Assembly (NCBI GenBank): GCA_964499465.1
Contig: CAZCLJ010000003.1
Span: forward strand, 1-49,748
Source: an uncultured Hyphomicrobiales bacterium
GTDB lineage: Bacteria; Bacteroidota; Ignavibacteria; Kapaibacteriales; UBA2268
Direction: 5' to 3'
DNA: 49,748 nt
Position numbers and translations under genes: made by a program. Positions within the stretch are counted from its first letter, which is position 1; every line of letters starts with the position of its first letter. This document shows positions 14,481 to 28,369 of the stretch, in pieces. The notes beneath the pieces were generated by a model that searched no databases, was not told the DNA's origin, and saw only the letters and a program-made list of their open reading frames with translations.

Positions 14481-15749
14481 TTAATCGATATATTCAAAAC
14501 CGCAATAAGGAACTAAAACGTCTGGAACGCGAATTCTTCCGTTTTCGTAGTATTGCTCTATGATTGATACTATTAGGCGGGACGTAGCAAGCCCGCTTCC
14601 ATTTAAGGTATGAACAAATTCCGGTTTAGAACTTGGAGTTCGCTTAAACCTAATAGCTGCTCTTCTTGCCTGAAAATCTTCAAAGTTAGAGCAACTGGAA
14701 CATTCCAACCATTTTTTTTCTGCTTGCGACCAACATTCCAAATCATAAGTCTTAGCACTCGAAAAACTTGTATCGCCCGAGCAAAGAGAAAGTACTCTAT
14801 AAGGAATTTGTAGTGCCTGAAGAATTTCCTCAACATCAGCAACAAGCAATTCCAATTCATTATAAGATTCTTCTGGCAAGCAAAGTTTGACAAGTTCTAC
14901 TTTATTGAATTGATGAACTCTTAAAAAGCCGCGTGTGTCTTTTCCATAGCTGCCAGCTTCACGACGAAAACACTGAGTAAAACCGCATACTTTGGTAGGA
15001 ATTTCTTCTACTTTCAAAATTTCGTTTGAAAAGAAATTGGTTAGTGGAACTTCAGCTGTTGGAATTAAATACAAATCATCTTTTTCGATGTAATACATAT
15101 CTTCAGCGAGTTTTGGGATTTGCCCTGTTCCGACCATAGAATTGCGATTAACAACAAGAGGTGGGATTAGTTCAGTGTAGCCGTGCTTTTCGATATGTAA
15201 ATCAAGCATATAATTAATTAAAGATCGCTCAAGTTTGGCACCCTTTCCAATATAATAAGCAAAACCAGCACCTGTAACCTTTGCGCCACGCTCAAAATCA
15301 AGTATGTTCAATTCTTTTGATATTGCAAGGTGGTCTTTGTAATTTCCATCAACTTTGGGGCTGCCCCAGTTGCGAACTTCAATATTATCTTCTGCTGTTT
15401 TTCCTATTGGCACGCTGTTATGAACCATATTTGGTATTTTTAGCTGCAAATTGAAAAGTTCCTGCTCAATTTCACGCAATTCATCATCAAGAATTTTAAT
15501 TCTATCTGAACATTCCTTCATTGCCTGGATTTTGTCGTCTGCATTTTCTTTTTGCCTTTTAAGCATTGCTATTTCATTAGAAACGACATTGCGGACATTT
15601 TTTAGCTGCTCAACTTCCAAAAGGTTTGCGCGCCTCTTCGAATCAACATCCATTATTTGTTCTACGACTTCGCTTGTTTTTTCATTTTTGTTAAGAATAT
15701 TTTGCTTAACGTTCTCACTATTTTCTCTAATAAATTTTAAATCTAACAT
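14481..15749 (-). CDS. serS: seryl-tRNA synthetase
   Basis: N-terminal coiled-coil arm followed by class II motifs (FRREAGS.G.DTRG..R.HQF.KVE, GSGLA.SR). Confidence 0.95.
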   Translation of the reverse strand: MLDLKFIRENSENVKQNILNKNEKTSEVVEQIMDVDSKRRANLLEVEQLKNVRNVVSNEIAMLKRQKENADDKIQAMKECSDRIKILDDELREIEQELFNLQLKIPNMVHNSVPIGKTAEDNIEVRNWGSPKVDGNYKDHLAISKELNILDFERGAKVTGAGFAYYIGKGAKLERSLINYMLDLHIEKHGYTELIPPLVVNRNSMVGTGQIPKLAEDMYYIEKDDLYLIPTAEVPLTNFFSNEILKVEEIPTKVCGFTQCFRREAGSYGKDTRGFLRVHQFNKVELVKLCLPEESYNELELLVADVEEILQALQIPYRVLSLCSGDTSFSSAKTYDLECWSQAEKKWLECSSCSNFEDFQARRAAIRFKRTPSSKPEFVHTLNGSGLATSRLIVSIIEQYYENGRIRVPDVLVPYCGFEYID

Positions 15750-16369: not shown

Positions 16370-16474
16370 AAACAAATTTACTAATTTTTTAAAATATAAG
16401 GTTAAGATAATTAGAGAAAAATTACTAATTTGAAAATTAGAAGAAGTCAATTTGAGAAGAAAAATAGAAGATTT

Positions 16475-17458
16475 ATGAAATTAGAAAATAAAAAATACAA
16501 TACTGTGATTGAAAAGAATACTTTTTACTTTTTTAATAAGGACTTTGAACAGCAGTATGAAGGATATATCAATTCATTAAAGGAAACATTACTTCTTTTA
16601 AAAAATGAAACAGAAAATAACGGATTTACAAAAGAAGTTTTTGAAAAGTTTTTATTTGAAAAAGAATATGGATTAAAAGCACTTTTAGCTTTAACTGGTT
16701 TTTCAAATGAATATTTTAAAAGACTAATCACTATCATTCGTATTTTGAATGATAAAGAGTTAAATAGGTTAATTTTAAAAGATAATTGGAACATAAATGA
16801 AAAATCTAGTTTTGAAAGCATAAGTGAGTGGTCAGACAATAAAATTGAGAACTTAATAAAAGAAAATGAATTTTTTAGAAAAGGCATTGTTAATCTGTTC
16901 TTTGAAGGGGCTACTATTCCATTTTTGACAAAAACAATTCCTTTATTTGAACTAAAAAAATTAAGTTTATCTAAACTTAAATTTGAAATTCCTGAGATGA
17001 TTGACACTTTAATCCGTTATAAGGAAAAAGGTTCTTATAACGGAAAAATAGAAAATAATCCAGAAACATTAATTAAATCAATTTTAAATGAGCTTAGTGT
17101 TGAGTTCGAGAAAGGAGATTTAACTGAATTAGTAACAGACGCTCCAGATAAAAAGCGAACAATGGATTTTATCATTCCAAACAAAACAAATCCAAGAATT
17201 ATTATTGAATATTCTTATCTCGTAACAACTTCCTCTGGTCAGGGAGATAAATCTAAAACTGAGATTTCAATAAATTCACTAATTACTCAGCACTATCCAA
17301 AAGCGAAGTTTATTGGCTTCGTTGATGGAATTGGCTGGTATGTTAGGAAAAAAGATTTAGAACGAATGGTAAATGCTTATTTTGATGTTTTTACTTTTCA
17401 CAATGATGAATTAGAGAGATTTGTAAAATTTATTAAAAAGGAGTTGAAAATTGTTTAA
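16475..17458 (+). CDS. putative type II restriction endonuclease
   Basis: The C-terminal MDFIIPNK..PRIIIEYSYLVTTSSGQGDKSK resembles the D..(E)x(K/S)...GSK nuclease core of some type II REases. The stop overlaps the start of the first methyltransferase. I prefer the ATG at 16475 over the TTG at 16430. Confidence 0.5.
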   Translation: MKLENKKYNTVIEKNTFYFFNKDFEQQYEGYINSLKETLLLLKNETENNGFTKEVFEKFLFEKEYGLKALLALTGFSNEYFKRLITIIRILNDKELNRLILKDNWNINEKSSFESISEWSDNKIENLIKENEFFRKGIVNLFFEGATIPFLTKTIPLFELKKLSLSKLKFEIPEMIDTLIRYKEKGSYNGKIENNPETLIKSILNELSVEFEKGDLTELVTDAPDKKRTMDFIIPNKTNPRIIIEYSYLVTTSSGQGDKSKTEISINSLITQHYPKAKFIGFVDGIGWYVRKKDLERMVNAYFDVFTFHNDELERFVKFIKKELKIV

Positions 17459-18434
17459 CGACCTAATTAATAAAATACATCAGGGCGATTGCTTAGAGCT
17501 TTTCAAACAGATACCAGATGACTCTGTTGATATTGCTTTTGCAGACCCACCTTTTAATTTAAATAAAAAATATAATAATAATAAAGATAAATTAAAAATA
17601 AAGGAATATCTTAACTGGTGCAGAAAATGGATAAATGAAATGGTTCGGGTAACAAAGCCGAGTGGTTCTATTTTTGTTCACAATATCCCAAAATGGCTGA
17701 CTTACTATTCTTCATTTCTCAATGAAATTGCGTATTTCAAGCACTGGATTAGCTGGGATGCAGCAACAGCGCCAATGGGAAAAACCTTGCAACCAGCACA
17801 CTATGGTATTCTTTTCTATACAAAACAGCCCCAAAATTTTAAATTCTACGAAGTTAGATGTCCTCATAAAAGAGCTCGAAAATCAAATATTTTAGCAAAA
17901 GATTATGGTGGGAAAAAAAGTTTGCTTCACCCATTTGGACCATTGGTTTCTGATGTTTGGACTGACATTCACCGCATTAAACACAATAAATACAGAGACG
18001 AGCATCCTTGCCAATTACCGATTCATTTGTTGGAAAGAATCATCTTGCTATCAACAGATGAAAACGATATAGTGCTTGACCCATTTAACGGAACTGGGAC
18101 AACAGCACTTGCTGCAAAGCGTTTGGGTAGAAACTTTATAGGATTTGATTTAAGCCAGGAATATATTGATATAACTAACTCGAAATTATCCAAGGAATTA
18201 TCAAATTCAAAAATTGGAGAAAAATGGGTAAGTTTTTATCTTAACCAAGTAGTTACTTTAAGGAATGATGATTGGGATTATTTAAAAGATTTCTTTTTTA
18301 TTCCAAAAAATCCAGTTGATATTGATACAATACAAATAATGCTAAAATCAAAAATTAAGCATATTCCAAATAAGAAAAACGGAAGTTCTGAAATTTCAAA
18401 CGAAAATCAAACTGCATTTTTATTTCCGGCTTAA
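17451..18434 (+). CDS. beta-class N6-adenine/N4-cytosine DNA methyltransferase, copy A
   Basis: Motif IV FADPPF near the N-terminus and motif I DPFNGTGTT near residue 210, the permuted order of PF01555-type enzymes. The TTG start overlaps the R gene stop. Confidence 0.9.
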   Translation: MFNDLINKIHQGDCLELFKQIPDDSVDIAFADPPFNLNKKYNNNKDKLKIKEYLNWCRKWINEMVRVTKPSGSIFVHNIPKWLTYYSSFLNEIAYFKHWISWDAATAPMGKTLQPAHYGILFYTKQPQNFKFYEVRCPHKRARKSNILAKDYGGKKSLLHPFGPLVSDVWTDIHRIKHNKYRDEHPCQLPIHLLERIILLSTDENDIVLDPFNGTGTTALAAKRLGRNFIGFDLSQEYIDITNSKLSKELSNSKIGEKWVSFYLNQVVTLRNDDWDYLKDFFFIPKNPVDIDTIQIMLKSKIKHIPNKKNGSSEISNENQTAFLFPA

Positions 18435-18442
18435 TTTTATAT

Positions 18443-19378
18443 ATGAATGAAAACTACATAAATAAAATTATAAATGACGATTGTTTGAATCATCTTTCGA
18501 ACTTGGAAGAAAATTCAATTGATTTGTTTCTGTCGGATATTCCTTACGGGATTTGCCTTGACGATTGGGACGTTTTACATAATAATACAAATTCTGCATT
18601 GCTCGGCACTTCTCCAGCTCAAAACGGGAAAAATGGATTTAAAAGACGTGGCAAACCAATTAATGGGTGGAGTTCGGCTGATAGAAATATTGGGAAAGAA
18701 TATCAGGAATGGGTGCAAAAGTGGTCAGATATGCTTTTTCCAGTAATGAAAGAAGGGGCTTTTCAATTTGTTTTTGGTGCAAGAAGGACAATTCACAGAG
18801 TTATAAATGCTTTTGAAAATTCTGGATTTCTTTTAAAAGATATTTTAGCTTGGAAAAAGCCATCTGCTCACCATAGGGCTCAAAAATTTTCTAACATTCT
18901 GCAAAATAGAGGACTTGAAGAAGAAATTGAAATATGGAATGGTTGGCGGCTTGGCAATTTAGCTCCTATTTATGAACCGATTGCTTGGTTTTTCAAGCCA
19001 TATAAAATAACTATAACTGATAATATCTTAAAATATGGAGTTGGCGCTATTAATACTGAAGATTGCAAAATAAACGGAGCAAGCCCAACAAACTTATTGG
19101 AATTTGGTTTTTCAAAAAATGAGAATAGATTTCACGAAGCTCAGAAACCATTAGAATTAATTGAATTTTTAATTAAATTAACTACTCGTGAAGAACAAAT
19201 TATTCTTGACCCATTTATGGGAAGTGGAACAACAGCATTAGCAGCTAAAAGGTTAAACAGAAAGTTTATTGGCTTTGAAATTAATGTAGATTATTACAAT
19301 GCTGCAATAGATAGAATTGAACAAAATAATTCTTCATTATTTTTTAATGGATTAGAAAAAGAATGTAGCTTGTTCTGA
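18443..19378 (+). CDS. second, distinct beta-class DNA methyltransferase
   Basis: Motif IV-like LSDIPYG at the N-terminus and motif I DPFMGSGTTALAAKRL near the C-terminus. Outside these motifs it is only distantly related to copies A and B. Confidence 0.85.
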   Translation: MNENYINKIINDDCLNHLSNLEENSIDLFLSDIPYGICLDDWDVLHNNTNSALLGTSPAQNGKNGFKRRGKPINGWSSADRNIGKEYQEWVQKWSDMLFPVMKEGAFQFVFGARRTIHRVINAFENSGFLLKDILAWKKPSAHHRAQKFSNILQNRGLEEEIEIWNGWRLGNLAPIYEPIAWFFKPYKITITDNILKYGVGAINTEDCKINGASPTNLLEFGFSKNENRFHEAQKPLELIEFLIKLTTREEQIILDPFMGSGTTALAAKRLNRKFIGFEINVDYYNAAIDRIEQNNSSLFFNGLEKECSLF

Positions 19379-19412
19379 ACTGATTTAATAATTCAAGATT
19401 TTCTATCTAACA

Positions 19413-20396
19413 ATGTTTAACGACCTAATTAATAAAATACATCAGGGCGATTGCTTAGAGCTTTTCAAACAGATACCAGATGACTCTGTTGATATTGCTT
19501 TTGCAGACCCACCTTTTAATTTAAATAAAAAATATAATAATAATAAAGATAAATTAAAAATAAAGGAATATCTTAACTGGTGCAGAAAATGGATAAATGA
19601 AATGGTTCGGGTAACAAAGCCGAGTGGTTCTATTTTTGTTCACAATATCCCAAAATGGCTGACTTACTATTCTTCATTTCTCAATGAAATTGCGTATTTC
19701 AAGCACTGGATTAGCTGGGATGCAGCAACAGCGCCAATGGGAAAAACCTTGCAACCAGCACACTATGGTATTCTTTTCTATACAAAACAGCCCCAAAATT
19801 TTAAATTCTACGAAGTTAGATGTCCTCATAAAAGAGCTCGAAAATCAAATATTTTAGCAAAAGATTATGGTGGGAAAAAAAGTTTGCTTCACCCATTTGG
19901 ACCATTGGTTTCTGATGTTTGGACTGACATTCACCGCATTAAACACAATAAATACAGAGACGAGCATCCTTGCCAATTACCGATTCATTTGTTGGAAAGA
20001 ATCATCTTGATTTCAACTGATGAAAACGATATAGTGCTTGACCCATTTAACGGAACTGGAACAACAGCACTTGCTGCAAAGCGTTTGGGTAGAAACTATA
20101 TTGGATTTGATTTGAGTCTGGAATATATTGATATAACTAACTCAAAATTATCCAAGGAATTATCAAATTCAAAAATTGGTGAAAAATGGGTGAGTTTTTA
20201 TCTTAACGAAGTAGTAACTTTAAGAAATGATGATTGGGATTATTTAAAAGATTTCTTCTTTATACCCAAAAATCCAGTTGATATTGATACAATTCAAATA
20301 TTGTTAAAATCAAAAATTAAGCATATTTCAAATAAGAAAAATGGAAGTTCTGAAATTTCAAATGAAAATCAAACTGCATTTTTATTTCCGGCTTAA
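19413..20396 (+). CDS. beta-class DNA methyltransferase, copy B (near-identical to 17451-18434)
   Basis: 327 aa with 6 aa differences from copy A. It has an ATG start and its own upstream spacer. Confidence 0.9.
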   Translation: MFNDLINKIHQGDCLELFKQIPDDSVDIAFADPPFNLNKKYNNNKDKLKIKEYLNWCRKWINEMVRVTKPSGSIFVHNIPKWLTYYSSFLNEIAYFKHWISWDAATAPMGKTLQPAHYGILFYTKQPQNFKFYEVRCPHKRARKSNILAKDYGGKKSLLHPFGPLVSDVWTDIHRIKHNKYRDEHPCQLPIHLLERIILISTDENDIVLDPFNGTGTTALAAKRLGRNYIGFDLSLEYIDITNSKLSKELSNSKIGEKWVSFYLNEVVTLRNDDWDYLKDFFFIPKNPVDIDTIQILLKSKIKHISNKKNGSSEISNENQTAFLFPA

Positions 20397-20416: not shown

Positions 20417-21187
20417 TTACTTACCCGGACAAATTATTGATTTGATTTCGTTGCTAATTTGAAATTCTTTGTATGGTTTAAATTTATAAATAGCTTTTTT
20501 TATATGGCTATATTTAGAAAGGTCGCCTGCTGCACATTTTTCCCAGTAAGAGTATGCTTCATCATTTGTAAATCCGCAGAATTGCATTAAAACAAGTGCT
20601 GAGGCATAACCAGATTGGTGCCAGCCATTCCAGCAATGTATGTATATTGGTCCGGCAGTCGAATCTTTTATATTGTTATAAACTAATTCTAAAAATTGCT
20701 TTATATCCTTTTCGTTTGATAATGAGTTTTGTATATAATTCAAGGATTTACTATTTATATCAGGTCCTATTGATTTTTTTGAATCAGCAAAATTTTTGGA
20801 ATATAAATAAATAACAGTTGAAAATCCTTCTTCGAGCAAATTTTCAAGACCTTCTTCTGGCATTGGATTTTCATTGTCTCTTTTATTATTTTTATTATAA
20901 TAGTTGTTTGCTCCTCCACGATAAACAATTCCATTTAATACAACCCGCATATTTCTCGTTCCATAAACCGAAGGGCAGTTTTCACCAAAATTGTCTGTGA
21001 TTTTATCATAAAGCGATGATGTTTTATATTTTTCTTCATATTTTGTTGCTCTTTCCTTTAAGTAGTTAAAATCATGTTTTTGAGCAAGTAAAGAAAAAGC
21101 AAATAAGAATAAAATAAGATAGGTATATTTTTTTAAACTATACGTTTTAAATAAATTAGTTTTTATCATAATTTTAAAAAATAACAT
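20417..21187 (-). CDS. secreted protein-tyrosine/dual-specificity phosphatase-like protein with atypical P-loop
   Basis: N-terminal hydrophobic signal (YTYLILFLFAFSLLAQ). IYIHCWNGWHQSGYASAL resembles the HCX5R(S/T) loop, but Gln occupies the Arg position. Confidence 0.5.
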   Translation of the reverse strand: MLFFKIMIKTNLFKTYSLKKYTYLILFLFAFSLLAQKHDFNYLKERATKYEEKYKTSSLYDKITDNFGENCPSVYGTRNMRVVLNGIVYRGGANNYYNKNNKRDNENPMPEEGLENLLEEGFSTVIYLYSKNFADSKKSIGPDINSKSLNYIQNSLSNEKDIKQFLELVYNNIKDSTAGPIYIHCWNGWHQSGYASALVLMQFCGFTNDEAYSYWEKCAAGDLSKYSHIKKAIYKFKPYKEFQISNEIKSIICPGK

Positions 21188-21347: not shown

Positions 21348-21390
21348 AAATATGCGAAATAACATACTAAGAGTCATCAGGAGTTCTGCA

Positions 21391-21446
21391 TTACTTCAAA
21401 AAGCAATGTTCATACACTTTCGGCTCTATTTTATTTGCTAATAATT
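21391..21446 (-). repeat. orphan copy of the 3' end of the NPPY methyltransferase gene
   Basis: ttacttcaaaaagcaatgttcatacactttcggctctattttatttgctaataatt compares with 24125- ttacttcaaaaagcaatgttcatacacttttggctcaattttctttgctaataatt. Confidence 0.8.
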
Positions 21447-21460
21447 GCAATACAAAAATA

Positions 21461-21922
21461 TTAGTCTCTAATTGATGGACATATTTCATGGTCAGGGTCA
21501 AACCATAAAATTTTTAAATATCCTGATTCTCGGATACCCCATATTCGTGATTTTCCATCTAACCGAAGTGAAAATAATTGGTCAATGTCATCAAGATGTA
21601 GCTCTATTAGCCGTTTTTGAGCTTCTTTAATAATATTGGAAATATCTACAGAATGATGTTTAGATTTACCTTTAGAACCAAAAGATTGTGTTTCAAGTTC
21701 ATTCCATTTACTACATTCAAAACTTTTTAGTTTATCAAGAATTTTTTTATAGTATTCAATATCTTCACTGATTATTTTCCTGGACCAATAAGGTTCTAAA
21801 TCCATTGTTCTAAACTGCCAAGATATAAAATGATTCTTACAAGTTGCTGGTTCTAAATGTTTAGGAGTTTTATTGAATTCTTCATCATTAAAAATTGATT
21901 TAGGATTTTTATTCTTTTTCAT
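21461..21922 (-). CDS. hypothetical protein, candidate toxin/effector of Panacea operon
   Basis: 153 aa with a 4-nt overlap with the Panacea gene. The C-terminal LFSLRLDGKSRIWGIRESGYLKILWFDPDHEI weakly resembles RelE/ParE/HigB-type terminal strands. Confidence 0.45.
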   Translation of the reverse strand: MKKNKNPKSIFNDEEFNKTPKHLEPATCKNHFISWQFRTMDLEPYWSRKIISEDIEYYKKILDKLKSFECSKWNELETQSFGSKGKSKHHSVDISNIIKEAQKRLIELHLDDIDQLFSLRLDGKSRIWGIRESGYLKILWFDPDHEICPSIRD

Positions 21923-22512
21923 AATGAACTATAATATTCAGCCATTGATTCTAAAGTAATAATATTATTTCCTCTATCTGTTGGTGACAAACCTTCTCTT
22001 GAAATTAACCATGGTTCTTCATTGTGTGTTAAATCTATTAACCATTGAGCTTGACGATTACCATAATAATTTAAGACTGAGTCAATGGTTTCTTTTTGTG
22101 TAGGGCTTAATTTATCTGGATTTCCATTTTCAATTTTCTCTACTTGAAAATGACCTCGATGAAAATTAAATAATTCTCTAATTACAGGGCCATTAGACCA
22201 AGCTTCAATATTTTCAAAAAATAAAGGTGCTTCATCCCATACTAAAGACCAGGCTTGGCAATAGTATAATAATTTATGTAATTTCATAGATGACATTTGC
22301 CCTAACTTCTTTAAAATATAAGCAGCAACATCAAAAACAGATATTCTAATAGCTGAAGTTTGTGCATTAATATTTTTTGTTAATTCTTCTTTATTTTGCC
22401 ATTTTACTTTTTCATTTTCTATAGTATTACTCAAAAGTTTACTTTCACTACTATAAAAATTGGGATTACTTTTAAATTCTGGCTTAATAGTATTTATTGA
22501 ATTGATGTTCAT
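21919..22512 (-). CDS. Panacea (DUF4065, SocA-like) antitoxin-domain protein
   Basis: VFDVAAYILKKLGQMSSMKLHKLLYYCQAWSLVWDEAPLFFENIEAWSNGPVIRELF matches the DUF4065 core (KLqKLLYY.Q.w.l......lf.e..eAW..GPV). A ~60-aa N-terminal extension precedes it. Confidence 0.75.
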   Translation of the reverse strand: MNINSINTIKPEFKSNPNFYSSESKLLSNTIENEKVKWQNKEELTKNINAQTSAIRISVFDVAAYILKKLGQMSSMKLHKLLYYCQAWSLVWDEAPLFFENIEAWSNGPVIRELFNFHRGHFQVEKIENGNPDKLSPTQKETIDSVLNYYGNRQAQWLIDLTHNEEPWLISREGLSPTDRGNNIITLESMAEYYSSL

Positions 22513-22513
22513 A

Positions 22514-23038
22514 CTATTCTAATTCTAAATTATAATATTTTTTAAGAATTTCAATGCTATCATTTTTAAGTTTTATTATTCCAAATTTATCTATTTTGCC
22601 TTTAAATTCAACTAAGTCTTTTATTGCAAAGTGATAATTGAAATTAATAAGGTAATTATTACCTGGATTTTTTGAAAATGTTAAATTCAAGGTATAATCG
22701 GTTAATTTAAATGAACGAGCAATATTAATATTTTCAATTTTTGATAAATCTTTTGTCAAAAAATCATCGTCAGGTAATTGAAATAACTCTTCTAATTGTT
22801 GGTTATTTGATGCTTTATAAAGAAAATTTACTCCAAATGAATCTACAGGTGTATGTGGTAAATAGTCCGCAATTTTTTGGGAATAATCATCTATTTTTTT
22901 TAATACTTCATCATCTACTTTTATTACTGAAAAATTTAACCTATTAGCTAATATATACATTCTTAATTCATCAGTAGAAAACCTTAAAGAACCATCAAAA
23001 TTTAATGGATATTCAATAAATAAGCTGATATTAGGCAT
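22514..23038 (-). CDS. hypothetical protein, first gene of Panacea operon
   Basis: 174 aa. Its stop lies 1 nt before the Panacea gene start. No family recognised. Confidence 0.45.
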   Translation of the reverse strand: MPNISLFIEYPLNFDGSLRFSTDELRMYILANRLNFSVIKVDDEVLKKIDDYSQKIADYLPHTPVDSFGVNFLYKASNNQQLEELFQLPDDDFLTKDLSKIENINIARSFKLTDYTLNLTFSKNPGNNYLINFNYHFAIKDLVEFKGKIDKFGIIKLKNDSIEILKKYYNLELE

Positions 23039-23256
23039 TAAAAAATTGTTAACCCAATTTTCTGTGAGGATATATTAATTCCATCCGCCAGTAATAGTTA
23101 ATACCTCAAAATCTGATAACATTTTCATAATAAATACTTTATTTCAAAAAATTAATATACAAAATTAATAATTATAAACTCAATATAATAAAAATTATTT
23201 TAAAATCATTTTATCAGAGATTATATTTTTAATTATTTAATCAATTGTTTTTCTAT

Positions 23257-23316
23257 TTCAAAAAGCAATGTTCATAGACCTTAGACTCTATTTTCTTTGC
23301 TAATATTTTTAATTTA
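23257..23316 (-). repeat. orphan, more diverged copy of the 3' end of the NPPY methyltransferase gene
   Basis: ttcaaaaagcaatgttcatagaccttagactctattttctttgctaatatttttaattta. Confidence 0.7.
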
Positions 23317-23327
23317 ATATATTGACA

Positions 23328-23504
23328 TTATACTATAGTTGATTTTGTAATAAACTTCAATCTACGTTCTTCAAAATATTTCTTCAATTCTTCAAAACTC
23401 ATATTTTGTATATCATTACTTATACTATCTCTTACTTCGCGCATAAATTTTACTGCTTTGAAGTTTGGAATTACTTCATTTTTAATATTTTTAATATTTT
23501 TCAT
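23328..23504 (-). CDS. small protein downstream of PIN gene (antitoxin-like)
   Basis: 58-aa ORF MKNIKNIKNEVIPNFKAVKFMREVRDSISNDIQNMSFEELKKYFEE... It is below the ORF-track cutoff, so I translated it by hand. It overlaps the PIN stop by 14 nt. Confidence 0.4.
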   Translation of the reverse strand: MKNIKNIKNEVIPNFKAVKFMREVRDSISNDIQNMSFEELKKYFEERRLKFITKSTIV

Positions 23505-23961
23505 AGTTTATAAGCTCCTTTGGTGAACGAATATCAATAGGTTTATAACCGTTTTTAATATTGACTGCATTGTATCCTCTTATTTTAACAACATTTACAA
23601 GATGTTTAAAATTCCAACTAACTAAAACATCTATATTATTAATAGTTGCCAAAGCAATATGGAAACAATCGTTACGACTGGTTTTGCCAACAACATTCTC
23701 ATCAATATATGAATCAGCGAGTAAAACTGCATCTTCTGTTAGTTCGACTTTAATTTTCAAATTTTCTGGAACTGAATTCAACAGTTTTTTTACTTGCAAA
23801 GGTGCTGTCAGTAATTCATCTTCAGTAACACTTGAAATTACAATGATATATTCACCAGAAATTATACTATTAAATAATTTTTGAGTTTCATTGGCAAATT
23901 CCTTATCATAGTATCCACCGATAACAGAAGTGTCTATATATAGTTTTAATTGTTTATTCAT
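23491..23961 (-). CDS. PIN-domain protein (VapC-like)
   Basis: 156 aa. LYIDTSVIGG (first acidic residue), ...EDELL..., and a later D/N-rich segment NDCFHIALA...VSWNFKHL, consistent with a PIN fold. Confidence 0.7.
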   Translation of the reverse strand: MNKQLKLYIDTSVIGGYYDKEFANETQKLFNSIISGEYIIVISSVTEDELLTAPLQVKKLLNSVPENLKIKVELTEDAVLLADSYIDENVVGKTSRNDCFHIALATINNIDVLVSWNFKHLVNVVKIRGYNAVNIKNGYKPIDIRSPKELINYEKY

Positions 23962-24124
23962 CGTTCATTCAGTTTTGTAAACTTAATTAGTTAAACGAAT
24001 AATATTATTAATAATTGCATAACTTTTAGATTTAAAAGTTTATTAGAGAAATAGATAATTTTCTTTTATACCTTTTTCTTTTTTAATTATCAAATATGAA
24101 AAGTTTATTATATGTGGTAAAACA

Positions 24125-25705
24125 TTACTTCAAAAAGCAATGTTCATACACTTTTGGCTCAATTTTCTTTGCTAATAATTTTAATTTATCGCGTAAGATG
24201 CTGATTAATTCCATATATAGTTCATCGTTGCTTTTGTTGTTCATTTTACCTTTTTCGTTGCGTCCCTGAAAATGCTCGCGAATATCATAAAGAGATGCAT
24301 TTACGTTGCATTTGGGCTGTGCGTGATAATATTTCCAAAGCTCCCTACCTGCATCGAAAACTGCTTGGGCTTCGCTTGAAAAAACAAGCGGAGTTGTTCT
24401 ATTGTTAAATTCATCCGATGACTTGAAGTCATCGGATGAATGAAATATCTCATTACTTTCATTTTTTTCAAAGCTATACTTTTTCAACTTTCCTCTTATA
24501 AAATCACTCATAAAACTGCTTTCAAACTTCTCTCTTGAGTTTACTTCCTGCTCTGTAAATGGAATCCAGTGGTTTGTTCCTTCTTTTGATGTAATCCTGT
24601 TTTGGCTGTGGAATAATGAAAAAGCAAGGCAGTCATTTTGAAACTCTGTATCTGCTTTCCAGCCATCATTTGGAAATAAGAACTGGTCGCGGTCGTTCAG
24701 CCAGGTTGCTTCAAGACAATTATGTATTGTAAAATAAATACTTTGCACAGGTAAATTAAGTGGCGTTACCTTTGAAGTATGGTCTTTATTATCAAAACTA
24801 CTAATATGCACACCACGAACGCTTTGAAAATCATTTCTGCCGTGATGCATTACTCCAATTACATTTTTGTTCGTATTGCTATAATAAATTCGTAACCAAT
24901 CATTTATCCTTTTCAAACCATTATAATCTAAAATATTCTTGTTGGAAAGCTTATTTCCTTTTTCATCATAAACATCAAAATTAAAACTTGAGAATTTATG
25001 CTCTAAATCTGTATTCCAAATTTTAAATCCTATTGGAAAATAACCTTTTACATTATCAAAAGTATAAGCTGGAACAAGAAAGCCATTTTCTAATTTTGCC
25101 AGAAAATTCTGTCGGAAAGTAAAAGAATCTAAACCAGTCAAATGCTTGATTTTAGAAAATTCCGCTATTTTGCAACCTTTAAATATTGTGTAAATCTGCC
25201 ATAGAAATTGAATAAAAATCTCATTGCTTGCTTTTCTTAATTCATTATAATATTTTTTGCTAACCGCTGTTTCTTTTACTCCTGCTTTATTTTGTCTTGA
25301 ATCTTTATTCCCTGCTTCCGCATACGGCGGATTAATATACATAACTAATTTTTTTCTTTTTTCTGGGTTATTAATAATATCAAAAAGTGGTTTAGGCAGT
25401 TTTTCGAAATCATCATTTAAGAAATCGAATTGAAAAACGTGGTCTTCAAGCAGGTTTGTCCCGTTTTTAATTCGGTCTTTCATTACCTCCACATCTTGCT
25501 TATCCAAAGTCGAAGCCCAGACATTATATTTATTTATAAGTCCGGTAAGCAAATTACCCGTTCCAGCGGCGCAATCCCAAACGTAGTATTCATCTTGCCA
25601 ATTCTCACCAAGCACATCTGTTATATATTTTTGAGAAAGCTCCACCCATATTTGTGGAGTAAAGAAACTGCCCTTTCGCTCCCTCTCTTCTTTTGGCATA
25701 AGCAA
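24125..25705 (-). CDS. N-terminally truncated paralogue of the 830-aa enzyme: gamma-class N6-adenine methyltransferase plus C-terminal (TRD-like) region, without the nuclease domain
   Basis: 526 aa, collinear with residues ~305-830 of the 25815-28307 product. Motif I WDCAAGTGNLL and motif IV YINPPYAEAGNK are retained. Confidence 0.8.
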   Translation of the reverse strand: MLMPKEERERKGSFFTPQIWVELSQKYITDVLGENWQDEYYVWDCAAGTGNLLTGLINKYNVWASTLDKQDVEVMKDRIKNGTNLLEDHVFQFDFLNDDFEKLPKPLFDIINNPEKRKKLVMYINPPYAEAGNKDSRQNKAGVKETAVSKKYYNELRKASNEIFIQFLWQIYTIFKGCKIAEFSKIKHLTGLDSFTFRQNFLAKLENGFLVPAYTFDNVKGYFPIGFKIWNTDLEHKFSSFNFDVYDEKGNKLSNKNILDYNGLKRINDWLRIYYSNTNKNVIGVMHHGRNDFQSVRGVHISSFDNKDHTSKVTPLNLPVQSIYFTIHNCLEATWLNDRDQFLFPNDGWKADTEFQNDCLAFSLFHSQNRITSKEGTNHWIPFTEQEVNSREKFESSFMSDFIRGKLKKYSFEKNESNEIFHSSDDFKSSDEFNNRTTPLVFSSEAQAVFDAGRELWKYYHAQPKCNVNASLYDIREHFQGRNEKGKMNNKSNDELYMELISILRDKLKLLAKKIEPKVYEHCFLK

Positions 25706-25814: not shown

Positions 25815-28262
25815 TCATTTCTTCAAAAAACCATATTCATACACTTTTGGCTCAATTTTCTTTGCTAATGATTTTAATTTATCGCGTAGAATGCTGATTA
25901 ATTCCATATATCTTTCATCGCTACTTTTGTTGTTCATTTTTCCTTTTTCATTGCGTCCCTGAAAATGCTCACGAATGTCGTAAAGAGATGCGTTTACGTT
26001 GCAGTTGGGCTGTGAATGATAATACATCCAAAGCTCCCTGCCTGCATCGAAAACAGCTTGGGCTTCGCTTGAAAAAACGAGCGGAGTTGTTCTATTGTTA
26101 AATTCATCAGATGACTTGAAGTCATCGGATGAATGAAATATCTCATTACTATCATTTTTTTTAAAGCTATACTTTTTCAGTTTCCCTCTTATAAAATCAG
26201 CGATGAAACTGCTTTCAAACTTTTCTCTGGAATTTACTTCCTGCTCTGTGAATGGAATCCAGTGGTTAATTCCTTCCTGTGAAGTAATTCTGTTTTGGCT
26301 GTGAAATAAAGTAAAAGCAAGGCAGTCGTTTTGAAACTCTGTGTCTGCTTGCCAGCTGTCATTTGGATATAAAAACTGGTCGCGGTCGTTTAGCCAAGTC
26401 GCTTCAATGCAATTATGTATTGTAAAATAAATACTTTGCATAAGTAAATTATGTGGAGTTATCTTTGAAGTATGGTCTTTATTGTCAAAACTACTAATAT
26501 GCACACCGCGAACACTTTGAAAATCATTTCTGCCGTGATGCATTACTCCAATGACGTTTTTATTCGTATTGCTATAATGAATTCGTAACCAATCGTTTAT
26601 CCTTTTCAAACCATTATAATCAAAAATATTCTTGTTGGAAAGCTTGTTTCCTTTTTCATCATAAACATCAAAATTAAAACTTGAGAATTTATGCTCTGAA
26701 TCTGTATTCCAAATTTTAAAACCAATTGGGAAAGAACCTGTTACATTATCAAAAGTATAAGCAGGAACAAGAAATCCTTTTTCTAATTTTGCCAGAAAAT
26801 TCTGCCTGAATGTAAAAGCATCTAACCCAGTTAAATGCTTAATTTTAGAAAACTCCGCTATTTTGCAACCTTTAAATTTAGTATATATCTGCCAAAGAAA
26901 TTGAATAAAAATTTCATTACTGGCTTTTCTTAATTCATTATAATACTTCTTGCTTACTGCTGTTTCTTTTATTCCTGATTTATTTTTTCTTGATGATTTG
27001 TTTCCCGCTTCAGCATAGGGCGGATTAATATAAATGACTAATTTTTTTATTTTTTCCGGATTATTGATAATATCGAAAAGCGGTTTAGGTAGTTTCTCAA
27101 AATCATCATTTAAGAAATCGAATTGAAAAACGTGGTCTTCAAGCAGGTTTGTCCCGTTTTTAATTCGGTCTTTCATTACCTCTACATCTTGCTTATCCAA
27201 GGTAGAAGCCCAGACATTATATTTATTTATAAGCCCTGTAAGCAAATTACCCGTTCCCGCAGCGCAATCCCAGACATAGTATTCATCTTGCCAATTCTCA
27301 CCAAGCACATCAGCTATATATTTTTGAGAAAGTTCCACCCATATTTGCGGAGTGAAAAAACTGCCCTTTCGTTCCCTGACATCCTGTGGAACGAGCAAAT
27401 CGCGACGCTCTACAATATAGTCCCAGTATTCTTCTTTTGGTGGTCTTTCGTATTTGTTCCAAAATTGATTATGCTGCTTTTGTCCGTCATTAAAAGTAGT
27501 AGTTCTGGAGCTGAACATACCCATTTCATCGAATTTTCTGTCCAATTCGTAGTGGTCTTTTTTGAGCAGAACAAAGAGTTTTTCCTTAAGAGATACATTT
27601 TCGTAAGAAAGCAAATCAGCTAGGTAAAAGTCGCCATCAATAATCCCGTTTTTCTTTGCAATTTCCCAATTTACAGCAATAGTTGGCTTTACAGTTTGCA
27701 GCCATTTATTGTAAATGTTCATAAAATTATTTTTATCTATTCTGATTTTTGTTAAGCCGAACTTACCAACGACGAAATTGTTTTTGATAAACTTGAGCAG
27801 TTCTTTATCATTTTTTTCAAAATAAAAGAGCAATGCTTTTTCGTCAATAATGATTTTTACTTTATTTTCAACGAACTGAAACTCTTTTGTATCATGATTG
27901 GAAGGAGTAACATTCCAGTTGAAATCGTTCATATAAAATACATCGTGAATTTCGCTATATGGAATGAAAGCGATTTTTTCAGAATCGAAAGCACCAAGCA
28001 GAGCAGGGGGGAGGTGCTGAACGAAAGTTCTGGCTTTACCAATAGTCAAGATAAGCTGAGTGATAGATTTATAAATATCAGAAATTCCTTTTTTTGCCTC
28101 AGCCCAAAGAAGAGATTCGTGTTCAAAAAGCTGGTTTTTCGTTTGATGGAAAGAGACGCAAAAATCCACATTGCCAATAATTTTGGAGCAATCATACTGC
28201 CAGAAATAATCCTGAGCAATTTTATTTTTGAGTTCTTCTTCTCTTATGTTTGAATATTTCAT
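25815..28262 (-). CDS. fused PD-(D/E)xK nuclease / NPPY N6-adenine methyltransferase (type IIG/IIL-like R-M enzyme)
   Basis: N-terminal GNVDFCV...ESLLWAEAKKG is a D...ExK arrangement. WDCAAGTGNLL (motif I) precedes INPPYAEAGNK (motif IV), the gamma-class order. A ~400-aa C-terminal region could be a TRD. The MKYSNIREE start at 28262 is preferred; the ORF extends to 28307. Confidence 0.7.
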   Translation of the reverse strand: MKYSNIREEELKNKIAQDYFWQYDCSKIIGNVDFCVSFHQTKNQLFEHESLLWAEAKKGISDIYKSITQLILTIGKARTFVQHLPPALLGAFDSEKIAFIPYSEIHDVFYMNDFNWNVTPSNHDTKEFQFVENKVKIIIDEKALLFYFEKNDKELLKFIKNNFVVGKFGLTKIRIDKNNFMNIYNKWLQTVKPTIAVNWEIAKKNGIIDGDFYLADLLSYENVSLKEKLFVLLKKDHYELDRKFDEMGMFSSRTTTFNDGQKQHNQFWNKYERPPKEEYWDYIVERRDLLVPQDVRERKGSFFTPQIWVELSQKYIADVLGENWQDEYYVWDCAAGTGNLLTGLINKYNVWASTLDKQDVEVMKDRIKNGTNLLEDHVFQFDFLNDDFEKLPKPLFDIINNPEKIKKLVIYINPPYAEAGNKSSRKNKSGIKETAVSKKYYNELRKASNEIFIQFLWQIYTKFKGCKIAEFSKIKHLTGLDAFTFRQNFLAKLEKGFLVPAYTFDNVTGSFPIGFKIWNTDSEHKFSSFNFDVYDEKGNKLSNKNIFDYNGLKRINDWLRIHYSNTNKNVIGVMHHGRNDFQSVRGVHISSFDNKDHTSKITPHNLLMQSIYFTIHNCIEATWLNDRDQFLYPNDSWQADTEFQNDCLAFTLFHSQNRITSQEGINHWIPFTEQEVNSREKFESSFIADFIRGKLKKYSFKKNDSNEIFHSSDDFKSSDEFNNRTTPLVFSSEAQAVFDAGRELWMYYHSQPNCNVNASLYDIREHFQGRNEKGKMNNKSSDERYMELISILRDKLKSLAKKIEPKVYEYGFLKK

Positions 28263-28369
28263 TTTAATTTTCGTTTGGAAAACAAAAAGCAAATACATTT
28301 TTTGCAAATTACGAAAAAATTGAAGAACAATATTTATAGAAAAGAAATTCAGTTTATTATCAATTCAAA

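Follow-up and report, generated by a model that had tools for sequence, protein, structure and literature searches.

Why would a toxin-antitoxin (TA) pair that commonly consists of two genes be preceded, at some loci, by a third? The question is raised by three tightly packed genes on the minus strand of a 49,748-nucleotide (nt) stretch of DNA, hereafter the window (contig CAZCLJ010000003.1 of GenBank assembly GCA_964499465.1, deposited as an uncultured Hyphomicrobiales bacterium and placed by GTDB in Bacteroidota, Ignavibacteria, Kapaibacteriales, UBA2268). In the order of transcription, these are gene A, the gene for a Panacea-domain antitoxin (PanA), and the toxin gene C. An earlier reading made without database searches (the sequence-only reading) had placed open reading frames (ORFs) here at 22514-23038 (174 amino acids, aa), 21919-22512 (197 aa), and 21461-21922 (153 aa), and both the coordinates and the tight coupling (a gap of 1 nt between the gene A ORF and PanA, then a PanA-C overlap of 4 nt, ATGA) proved exact. 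None of the three is a chance ORF, given 203 database homologues of C and 352 proteins retrieved with a profile of the 174-aa protein. The answer that we favor, at a probability of about 0.6, is that PanA and the putative RNase C form the core of a type II TA system, to which A would be an accessory regulatory or sensing input that works through a tail on PanA and is unneeded for neutralization.

The Panacea antitoxin and its toxin

The middle gene (21919-22512, minus strand) encodes a 197-aa protein in which the Panacea domain occupies residues 78-168 (about 22009-22281). The DUF4065/SocA-like core that the sequence-only reading had recognized (KLHKLLYYCQAWSLVWDEAPLF..EAWSNGPV) is confirmed by Pfam SocA_Panacea (PF13274; E=1.9e-18; score 67.9 bits, with the cut-off at 25.7). 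PHROG phrog_1281 matches as well (1.2e-36), and so does NCBIfam SocA_antitoxin (5.7e-10), the latter under its cut-off. Kurata et al. looked for a conserved toxin-like gene within 100 nt of the Panacea gene, and here the overlap with C is 4 nt. More than 100 related loci were compared, and nearly all show the PanA-C pairing; a PanA gene lies directly upstream of nearly every C homologue examined, often with a 4-nt overlap.

Toxin C (153 aa; 21461-21922, minus strand) has a predicted RelE/ParE-type fold, in which helices precede an antiparallel sheet of 3-4 strands, with a basic N-terminal extension. The top 36 Foldseek matches of its AlphaFold model (mean predicted local distance difference test, pLDDT, 88.9) in the PDB all belong to the RelE/ParE superfamily (RelE 1wmi, HP0894, HigB, YoeB, YafQ, and ParE2), with a best probability of 0.97 (1wmi) and template-modeling (TM) scores of 0.38-0.57 when normalized to these targets of ~90 aa. 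The weak RelE/HigB-like pattern that had been seen in the letters was therefore correct. In addition, residues 27-147 of C match the PADLOC model of NsnC (E=1.3e-4). NsnC's C-terminal domain (PB-BECR1) is described as an RNase of the Barnase/EndoU/Colicin/RelE (BECR) type, with an H-R-H triad and with YafQ as its top structural match (PMC12065111). Residues H90, R126, and H145 of C, invariant among 71 homologues, fit that triad as described, the likeness being one of residue pattern. The protein is basic (median isoelectric point, pI, 9.4) and, owing to its N-terminal extension, ~60 residues longer than classic RelE toxins.

The family to which C belongs can be named. A homologue from Gabonibacter massiliensis (P0046; E=3.8e-24; 43% identical to C across 91% of the query) is WP_059026745.1, which Dataset S1 of Kurata et al. 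2022 (PMC8832971) gives as the predicted toxin of PanA WP_082667137.1 (cluster T1, antitoxin before toxin, gap -4), and the family of C is thus PanT cluster T1, as a prediction. For other PanT clusters, the same dataset reports HHpred matches to RelE, YoeB, or HigB (PMC8832971). Taken with the structural model and the NsnC match, this makes C a predicted RNase of the RelE/BECR fold and not, as had been thought plausible, a toxin of new fold.

Comparison with described systems places the pair more closely. It shares with the cluster T1 systems (PMC8832971) the Panacea antitoxin, the order of antitoxin then toxin, the 4-nt overlap, and a toxin homologous to WP_059026745.1, but here and in ~45 related loci there is an additional upstream gene, A, and an N-terminal tail on PanA. 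With RelE, HigB, YoeB, YafQ, and ParE, C has in common the predicted fold, a conserved C-terminal histidine, a conserved arginine in the sheet, and a basic character, whereas its partner is a Panacea antitoxin rather than one of the RelB, HigA, YefM, or DinJ type. The effector domain of the Menshen system, NsnC, is alike in its His/Arg/His pattern and in the model match given above. However, the operon lacks NsnA (ParB-DUF262) and NsnB (an ABC ATPase), and C, the putative toxin of a TA pair, stands alone and lacks the inactive-PIN N-terminal domain; only the C-terminal part of the NsnC model matches C, and neither A nor PanA has any PADLOC match. Finally, a distant RelE-like protein adjoins a DUF4065 protein in Mycoplasma (MMSYN1_0416/0417; PMC13621843). 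The C-terminus of C matches the NCBIfam model MAG6450_fam (8e-7), at 29.6 bits and so below the cut-off of 40, and as in the window, a RelE-like protein stands beside a Panacea protein; the description of the Mycoplasma pair mentions no third gene.

Two variations on the pair were observed. A long form of C (213-228 aa), with an insertion of ~65 residues after the first helices, occurs in Bacteroidota and some viral contigs, and only in three-gene loci (L001, L007, L013, L043, L061, L148-L152, and L170); the C of the window is of the short form. Also, L075/L076 and L156 are loci at which another Panacea gene, or another PanA-toxin pair, directly adjoins the first.

The third gene and the antitoxin tail

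How regularly does A accompany the pair? Searching with a profile of A gave 51 loci from species-representative genomes, and in ~41 of them A, a Panacea gene, and C succeed one another on one strand in an unchanged order, either closely spaced or overlapping. Most of these triplets are from Poribacteria; the others belong to Bacteroidota, Desulfobacterota, Clostridia, Fibrobacter, Dehalococcoidia, and further groups. Metagenome contigs, Mucilaginibacter, the cultured strain Gabonibacter massiliensis GM7, and viral contigs of IMG/VR show this arrangement too, and the three-gene order is seen at about 45 loci in several phyla and in viral contigs. The tripartite arrangement that the sequence-only reading had offered as plausible is therefore real. 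Gabonibacter has A, yet its row in Dataset S1 of Kurata et al. 2022 (PMC8832971) names no accessory protein.

The idea that Panacea generally has partners on both sides did not hold, as most C homologues sit in plain PanA-toxin pairs. Legionella, Sphingobium, and Sulfurimonas have C with only a short PanA upstream. Further, 80 metagenome loci were collected with a C alignment chosen for its shared C-terminal motif and including three confirmed two-gene members (a sample biased, by this choice, to the two-gene type); nearly all have PanA, and four of the 80 have A. Because the two-gene form is common, we take the PanA-C pair to be the core and A to mark a subset.

What distinguishes that subset, apart from A, is the length of the antitoxin. 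In the 45 three-gene loci PanA is 192-260 aa long (median 212) and aligns to the PanA of the window from profile position ~23, whereas in 47 two-gene loci (those with enough upstream DNA for PanA length to be judged) the median is 151 aa and the alignment begins at position ~57, which is residue ~3 of the proteins themselves. In other words, an N-terminal extension of ~55-65 residues goes with A, and it is homologous only among three-gene loci. In the window it comprises residues 1-56 (22345-22512, minus strand), which are polar, poorly conserved, and probably disordered. Across the family the extension is acidic (median pI 4.25) and of variable length, with E, S, D, and T abundant, all of which, together with its poor conservation, are marks of a disordered tail; the one frequent feature is a tryptophan 15-20 residues before the Panacea core. 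A rough neighbor-joining tree of C shows about five changes of the three-gene state, and the long PanA is found in 45 of 45 three-gene loci, so that the correlation of A with the tail is not a single inherited event, as far as so crude a tree can tell. Given that tail-less PanAs of two-gene loci face the same toxin family, the tail is more likely to be a contact for A than a neutralizer of C.

These observations bear on the simplest alternative, namely that A is an unrelated neighbor that travels with the TA pair and has no functional link to it. Most PanA-C pairs do lack A, and Kurata et al. concluded that third genes generally stand outside toxicity and neutralization (PMC8832971). But an idle passenger would hardly keep its order, strand, and tight spacing or overlap in about 45 loci of distant phyla and viral contigs, nor would the tail of PanA be expected to co-vary with it, and the cassette described below moves as one unit with A included. 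On synteny and co-variation, pure hitch-hiking is thus so unlikely that we give it hardly any weight.

The window itself provides a different kind of evidence, because its copy of A is broken. Homologues of A are all 200-221 aa long, and each has 30 conserved N-terminal residues that the 174-aa ORF lacks. The 30 missing codons are in fact there, in frame and immediately upstream of the ORF: they read MKMLSDFEVLTITGGWN, a stop codon, and YILTENWVNNFL, after which the ORF begins with MPNISL. Full-length gene A thus has 204 codons (22514-23128, minus strand) and is interrupted at codon 18 by an in-frame TAA (23077-23075); its true start lies 90 nt beyond the end that had been assigned to it. What had been taken for a whole protein of 174 aa (22514-23038, minus strand) is the remnant downstream from the stop, read from the internal Met31. 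The stop stands where relatives encode K, Y, S, A, R, or P, and a single base change from AAA or TAT suffices to give TAA. The segment lost before Met31 is the first strand and helix, with the nearly invariant V11, G14, W16, N17, I20, F21, and W25, and without these elements and seven residues a product started at Met31 is unlikely to fold. A contig assembled separately from run SRR8925806 (a sample possibly the same as, or related to, that of the window), which is 100% identical over 21391-24154, has this TAA as well, and the stop is therefore no quirk of one assembly. Despite the interruption of A, the PanA and C of the window retain every conserved residue. A is also split in another locus (L009), where PanA and C are intact.

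In toxin-antitoxin-chaperone (TAC) systems, the antitoxin carries a C-terminal extension that is attended by a dedicated chaperone. By analogy, A could be a chaperone that stabilizes PanA via an aggregation- or degradation-prone N-terminal tail, in which case the toxin would be freed if A were lost or titrated. TAC systems (e.g., HigB-HigA-SecB-like; such systems are mentioned in PMC8832971 and PMC10440598) do resemble the three-gene loci in having three genes, a disordered antitoxin extension, and a dedicated third protein, and the co-occurrence of tail and A fits the same logic. However, the TAC model predicts harm when A is lost, yet both where A is knocked out (here) and where it is split (L009), PanA and the toxin look intact and keep their conserved residues, which counts against a chaperone. 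A is also encoded first, its Foldseek matches include no SecB, it has no Pfam match, and the extension of PanA is at the opposite end of the antitoxin. We regard this explanation as quite improbable.

What gene A may contribute

Protein A belongs to a large family that has no annotation. Besides the 352 proteins retrieved with the profile, there are 2,881 clusters at 50% identity, 339 of them with E<=1e-30. Neither the single protein nor 89 family members gave a match in Pfam, NCBIfam, PADLOC, or PHROGs; searches of PDB sequences with A alone and with the A profile returned chance matches only, and we found no description of A in the literature searched. The sequence-only reading had held both flanking proteins to be unassignable and had allowed that its case would fail if both were placed in described families: the 174-aa protein indeed matches nothing in any library tried, while the 153-aa protein is placed (RelE/BECR, cluster T1). 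The structure searches on AlphaFold models that it had proposed divided in the same way, leading to the RelE/ParE superfamily for the 153-aa protein and to no convincing solved neighbor for A.

For A, the search was made with an intact relative that is 63% identical (P0122), the model of which is confident (pLDDT 94; predicted TM score, pTM, 0.89). It consists of two halves, each with the element order beta-alpha-beta(3-4)-alpha. An hhalign comparison of the N-terminal and C-terminal halves of A gave a probability of 0.25%, and hence no sequence evidence of internal duplication; the idea of two similar halves accordingly comes solely from the order of secondary-structure elements. Among viral models (BFVD), Foldseek matches A well to an unnamed protein, A0A515MGR4 (TM 0.72). 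Two candidate relatives were discarded. The best Foldseek match in the PDB, the AdoMetDC prozyme, is not convincing (TM 0.35, root-mean-square deviation 19 Å), and TIGR04255-like proteins, considered as a possible relative, do not appear among the NCBIfam matches.

A further possibility is that A is the transcriptional regulator of the operon, as PaaR is for paaR-paaA-parE, and provides the DNA binding that a standalone Panacea antitoxin lacks. A is first in its operon, as is paaR (PMC8832971), and the two halves of the model, together with a weak match to a putative TATA-box-binding protein (TBP) in BFVD, hint at a TBP-like fold. But that match is poor (TM 0.27), A is acidic (median pI 5.3), and, unlike what would be expected of a PaaR counterpart, it matches no helix-turn-helix or other DNA-binding domain in Pfam or NCBIfam. 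Nor would regulation explain why PanA gains a tail together with A, and the two-gene relatives cope without A. For these reasons (acidity, lack of a DNA-binding domain, and the unexplained tail), a regulator of this kind is very unlikely.

The conserved residues of A raise another alternative. Invariant or nearly invariant positions, polar and other, include W16-N17, H92, T93, an LPHTPV motif, N101, N164, H166, and Y199, and the conserved polar residues are kept even among the most divergent members, which hints at a conserved biochemical site. A might then be a toxic enzyme of new fold, so that one antitoxin would serve two toxins, the PanA tail neutralizing A "linearly" and the Panacea core neutralizing the RelE-like toxin. 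The polar residues are suggestive of catalysis, the tail occurs only with A, neutralization by elements appended to Panacea is documented (PMC10440598), and toxin genes are often lost by mutation, as A is by a nonsense mutation here. However, an intact orphan A without PanA and C nearby is found in L006; divergent A homologues also occur in another type of operon that has no Panacea gene, and A, being acidic, is unlike any known toxin in the libraries tried. We therefore think a two-toxin arrangement unlikely.

These other contexts of A deserve description in their own right. The orphan of L006 (1418-2089) is intact and closely related (E=3e-73 to the family profile) and adjoins ribosomal protein genes, with no Panacea or toxin gene close to it. 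Nine divergent homologues (A') stand without PanA and C, and in seven of the nine loci A' precedes a protein of 296-408 aa that bears the motif "LTQSCDL/LTPTCD"; in five of these seven, a 93-138-aa ORF lies between the two. The loci in question are L038, L044 (2910-5087), L045, L046, L047, L050, and L054, and the partner proteins have no match in Pfam, NCBIfam, PADLOC, or PDB sequences. A is thus a module in at least two types of small operon, and the A' operon may be an undescribed small system that shares it.

We return to the reading in which A is an accessory to a TA core. PanA would bind and neutralize C, and C, as a BECR endoribonuclease, would probably cleave RNA using H90, R126, and H145. 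Where A is present, it would act on the acidic, probably disordered N-terminal tail that PanA has only in its company, and as a regulatory or sensing input it would set when PanA releases the toxin. For neutralization, A would be dispensable, in that it is interrupted by a nonsense codon here and split in L009 with PanA and C intact. It follows from the premature TAA that the copy in the window most likely functions as a plain two-gene TA module.

Several points speak against this interpretation, and they should be set beside the estimate of 0.6. The Foldseek E-values of C are weak (best 0.019, none reaching 0.001), so that the case for its fold comes from the consistency of the matches and from no single one of them. 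No Pfam model of RelE, ParE, YoeB, HigB, or YafQ matches C even at E<=1, the corresponding NCBIfam models likewise give nothing at E<=1, and a profile search of C against PDB sequences yields no RelE-family match; C therefore belongs to the superfamily by fold and to none of those families by sequence. Cluster T1 is marked "notest" by Kurata et al. 2022, the toxin being predicted (PMC8832971). What links A to the tail is correlated presence and absence in related sequences, and the tail is poorly conserved; moreover, a few two-gene loci have long PanA ORFs (191-219 aa), for which start codons called too far upstream or different N-terminal domains may account. The invariant polar residues of A are more suggestive of an active site, or of one that binds a ligand, than of a simple surface for docking. 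Lastly, metagenomic contigs carry sequencing errors, and counts of pseudogenes are soft evidence.

A more ambitious version is possible, although we hold it only tentatively and think the odds are against it. In that version, A would found a new fold family (~2,900 clusters) of sensors or switches that dock on a disordered antitoxin tail and thereby control the release of an RNase toxin, following TAC-like logic with an unrelated protein, and the module would be reused with a different effector (the 300-400-aa proteins with the "LTQSCDL" motif).

The cassette, its surroundings, and what the third gene means

The upstream region, gene A, the PanA gene, and the toxin gene C together make up a cassette at 21454-23251 (minus strand). 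Its limits were set with the nearest relative, L145, which was recovered from other runs within the same accession series and is 76% identical over 1,806 nt (blastn; window 23251-21454). The homology ends at a copy of a 63-nt direct repeat on either side, and this correspondence of the homologous span with the interval between two repeats upholds the earlier description of the operon as a discrete cassette. L145 has an intact A (207 aa), PanA (197 aa), and C (154 aa), in a different neighborhood (efflux and outer-membrane genes on one side, a Por_Secre_tail gene on the other). From this intact copy in another genomic context and from the low G+C content of the cassette (25.1% vs. 31.4% for the window), it is a discrete, horizontally moved unit of 1.8 kb. 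No flanking direct repeats were found around the cassette in L145.

The repeat on the toxin side (21389-21451) is a relic of the last ~20 codons of a neighboring methylase-like gene, and the one on the gene A side (23251-23313) also terminates a neighboring cassette with a PIN-domain gene. In total there are four copies, 81-92% identical (21389-21451, 23251-23313, 24123-24185, and 25816-25878). The repeat corresponds to the last ~20 codons of an 830-aa methylase-like gene, the final 17 codons of which read LAKKIEPKVYEHCFLK followed by the stop codon. On the minus strand, one copy closes each of four units: the 830-aa gene, a truncated 526-aa copy of it, the PIN cassette, and the Panacea cassette. 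Because each unit terminates with one copy, the PIN and Panacea cassettes look as if they had been inserted serially at the 3' end of the 830-aa gene. Two ORFs near the repeats (389 and 397 aa), which had been guessed to be recombinases, are in fact histidine kinases, and no recombinase was found near the repeats. Short-read assemblies break at these repeats, and two of the contigs (L143 and L144) both stop at 21391.

A possible promoter element lies within the upstream region. The Bacteroidota -7 promoter consensus is TAnnTTTG, and a candidate box of this type, TAATTTTG (23160-23167, minus strand), is located 32 nt upstream of the start codon of full-length A; the corresponding position in L145 reads TATTTTTG. 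A sigma-70 promoter scan was uninformative (20 sites vs. 16.5 expected by chance).

The surroundings include three N6/N4 DNA methylases, an ORF without matches, a PIN-domain module, and two methylase-like paralogues. Given the methylases and the PIN module, the claim of a defense island is fair in the form of a small defense/restriction-modification island. At 16430-20396, a 342-aa ORF without family match, which may be the matching restriction enzyme, is followed by three N6_N4 DNA methylase genes in a row (E=1e-41 to 1e-52), and serS lies just upstream of this block on the opposite strand (14481-15749). The cassette is adjoined by a 256-aa protein (20417-21187) with a hydrophobic N-terminus and weak matches to dual-specificity phosphatases, all under cut-off. 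On the other side, between repeat copies, the second small cassette (23328-23961; G+C 24.7%) encodes a 156-aa PIN protein (Pfam PIN, 6.2e-5, barely above the cut-off) and then an overlapping 58-aa ORF without matches. The putative toxin is thus first, an order unusual for a PIN/VapBC-type pair.

Beyond it, the 526-aa ORF (24125-25705) is a 5'-truncated paralogue of the 830-aa ORF (25815-28307), their 3' ends being 91% identical over 300 nt. The paralogues show weak N6_Mtase matches only, the 830-aa protein has no Pfam or NCBIfam match at all, and the same 33-nt palindrome is present in both (24409-24441 and 26102-26134). A 45-nt inverted repeat (28710-28754/28842-28886; 96% complementary, 87 nt between the arms) lies in the intergenic stretch that separates the 830-aa gene from the histidine kinase genes. 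A second inverted pair, of 30 nt, is at 28370-28399/28634-28663.

As for what the locus adds, the Panacea:toxin pair contributes little, since its cluster was catalogued in 2022; what is new there is the predicted assignment of the toxin to the RelE/BECR RNase fold. The novelty is in the third gene, which, judged from its homologues, is a conserved part of a tripartite variant and has become a pseudogene in the window. It represents a large unannotated family with a confident predicted structure and no convincing solved relative, and it sits ahead of PanA in several phyla and phage-like contigs, always with the extra, probably disordered antitoxin tail. The window itself holds a decayed copy with A broken, of use chiefly as a natural indication that the toxin may be restrained without A. 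The cultured strain Gabonibacter massiliensis GM7 has the triplet intact. A sensory role for Panacea was proposed by Ernits et al. 2023. A dedicated partner of the antitoxin, if A is one, would give a concrete and testable handle on how TA modules detect what triggers them.

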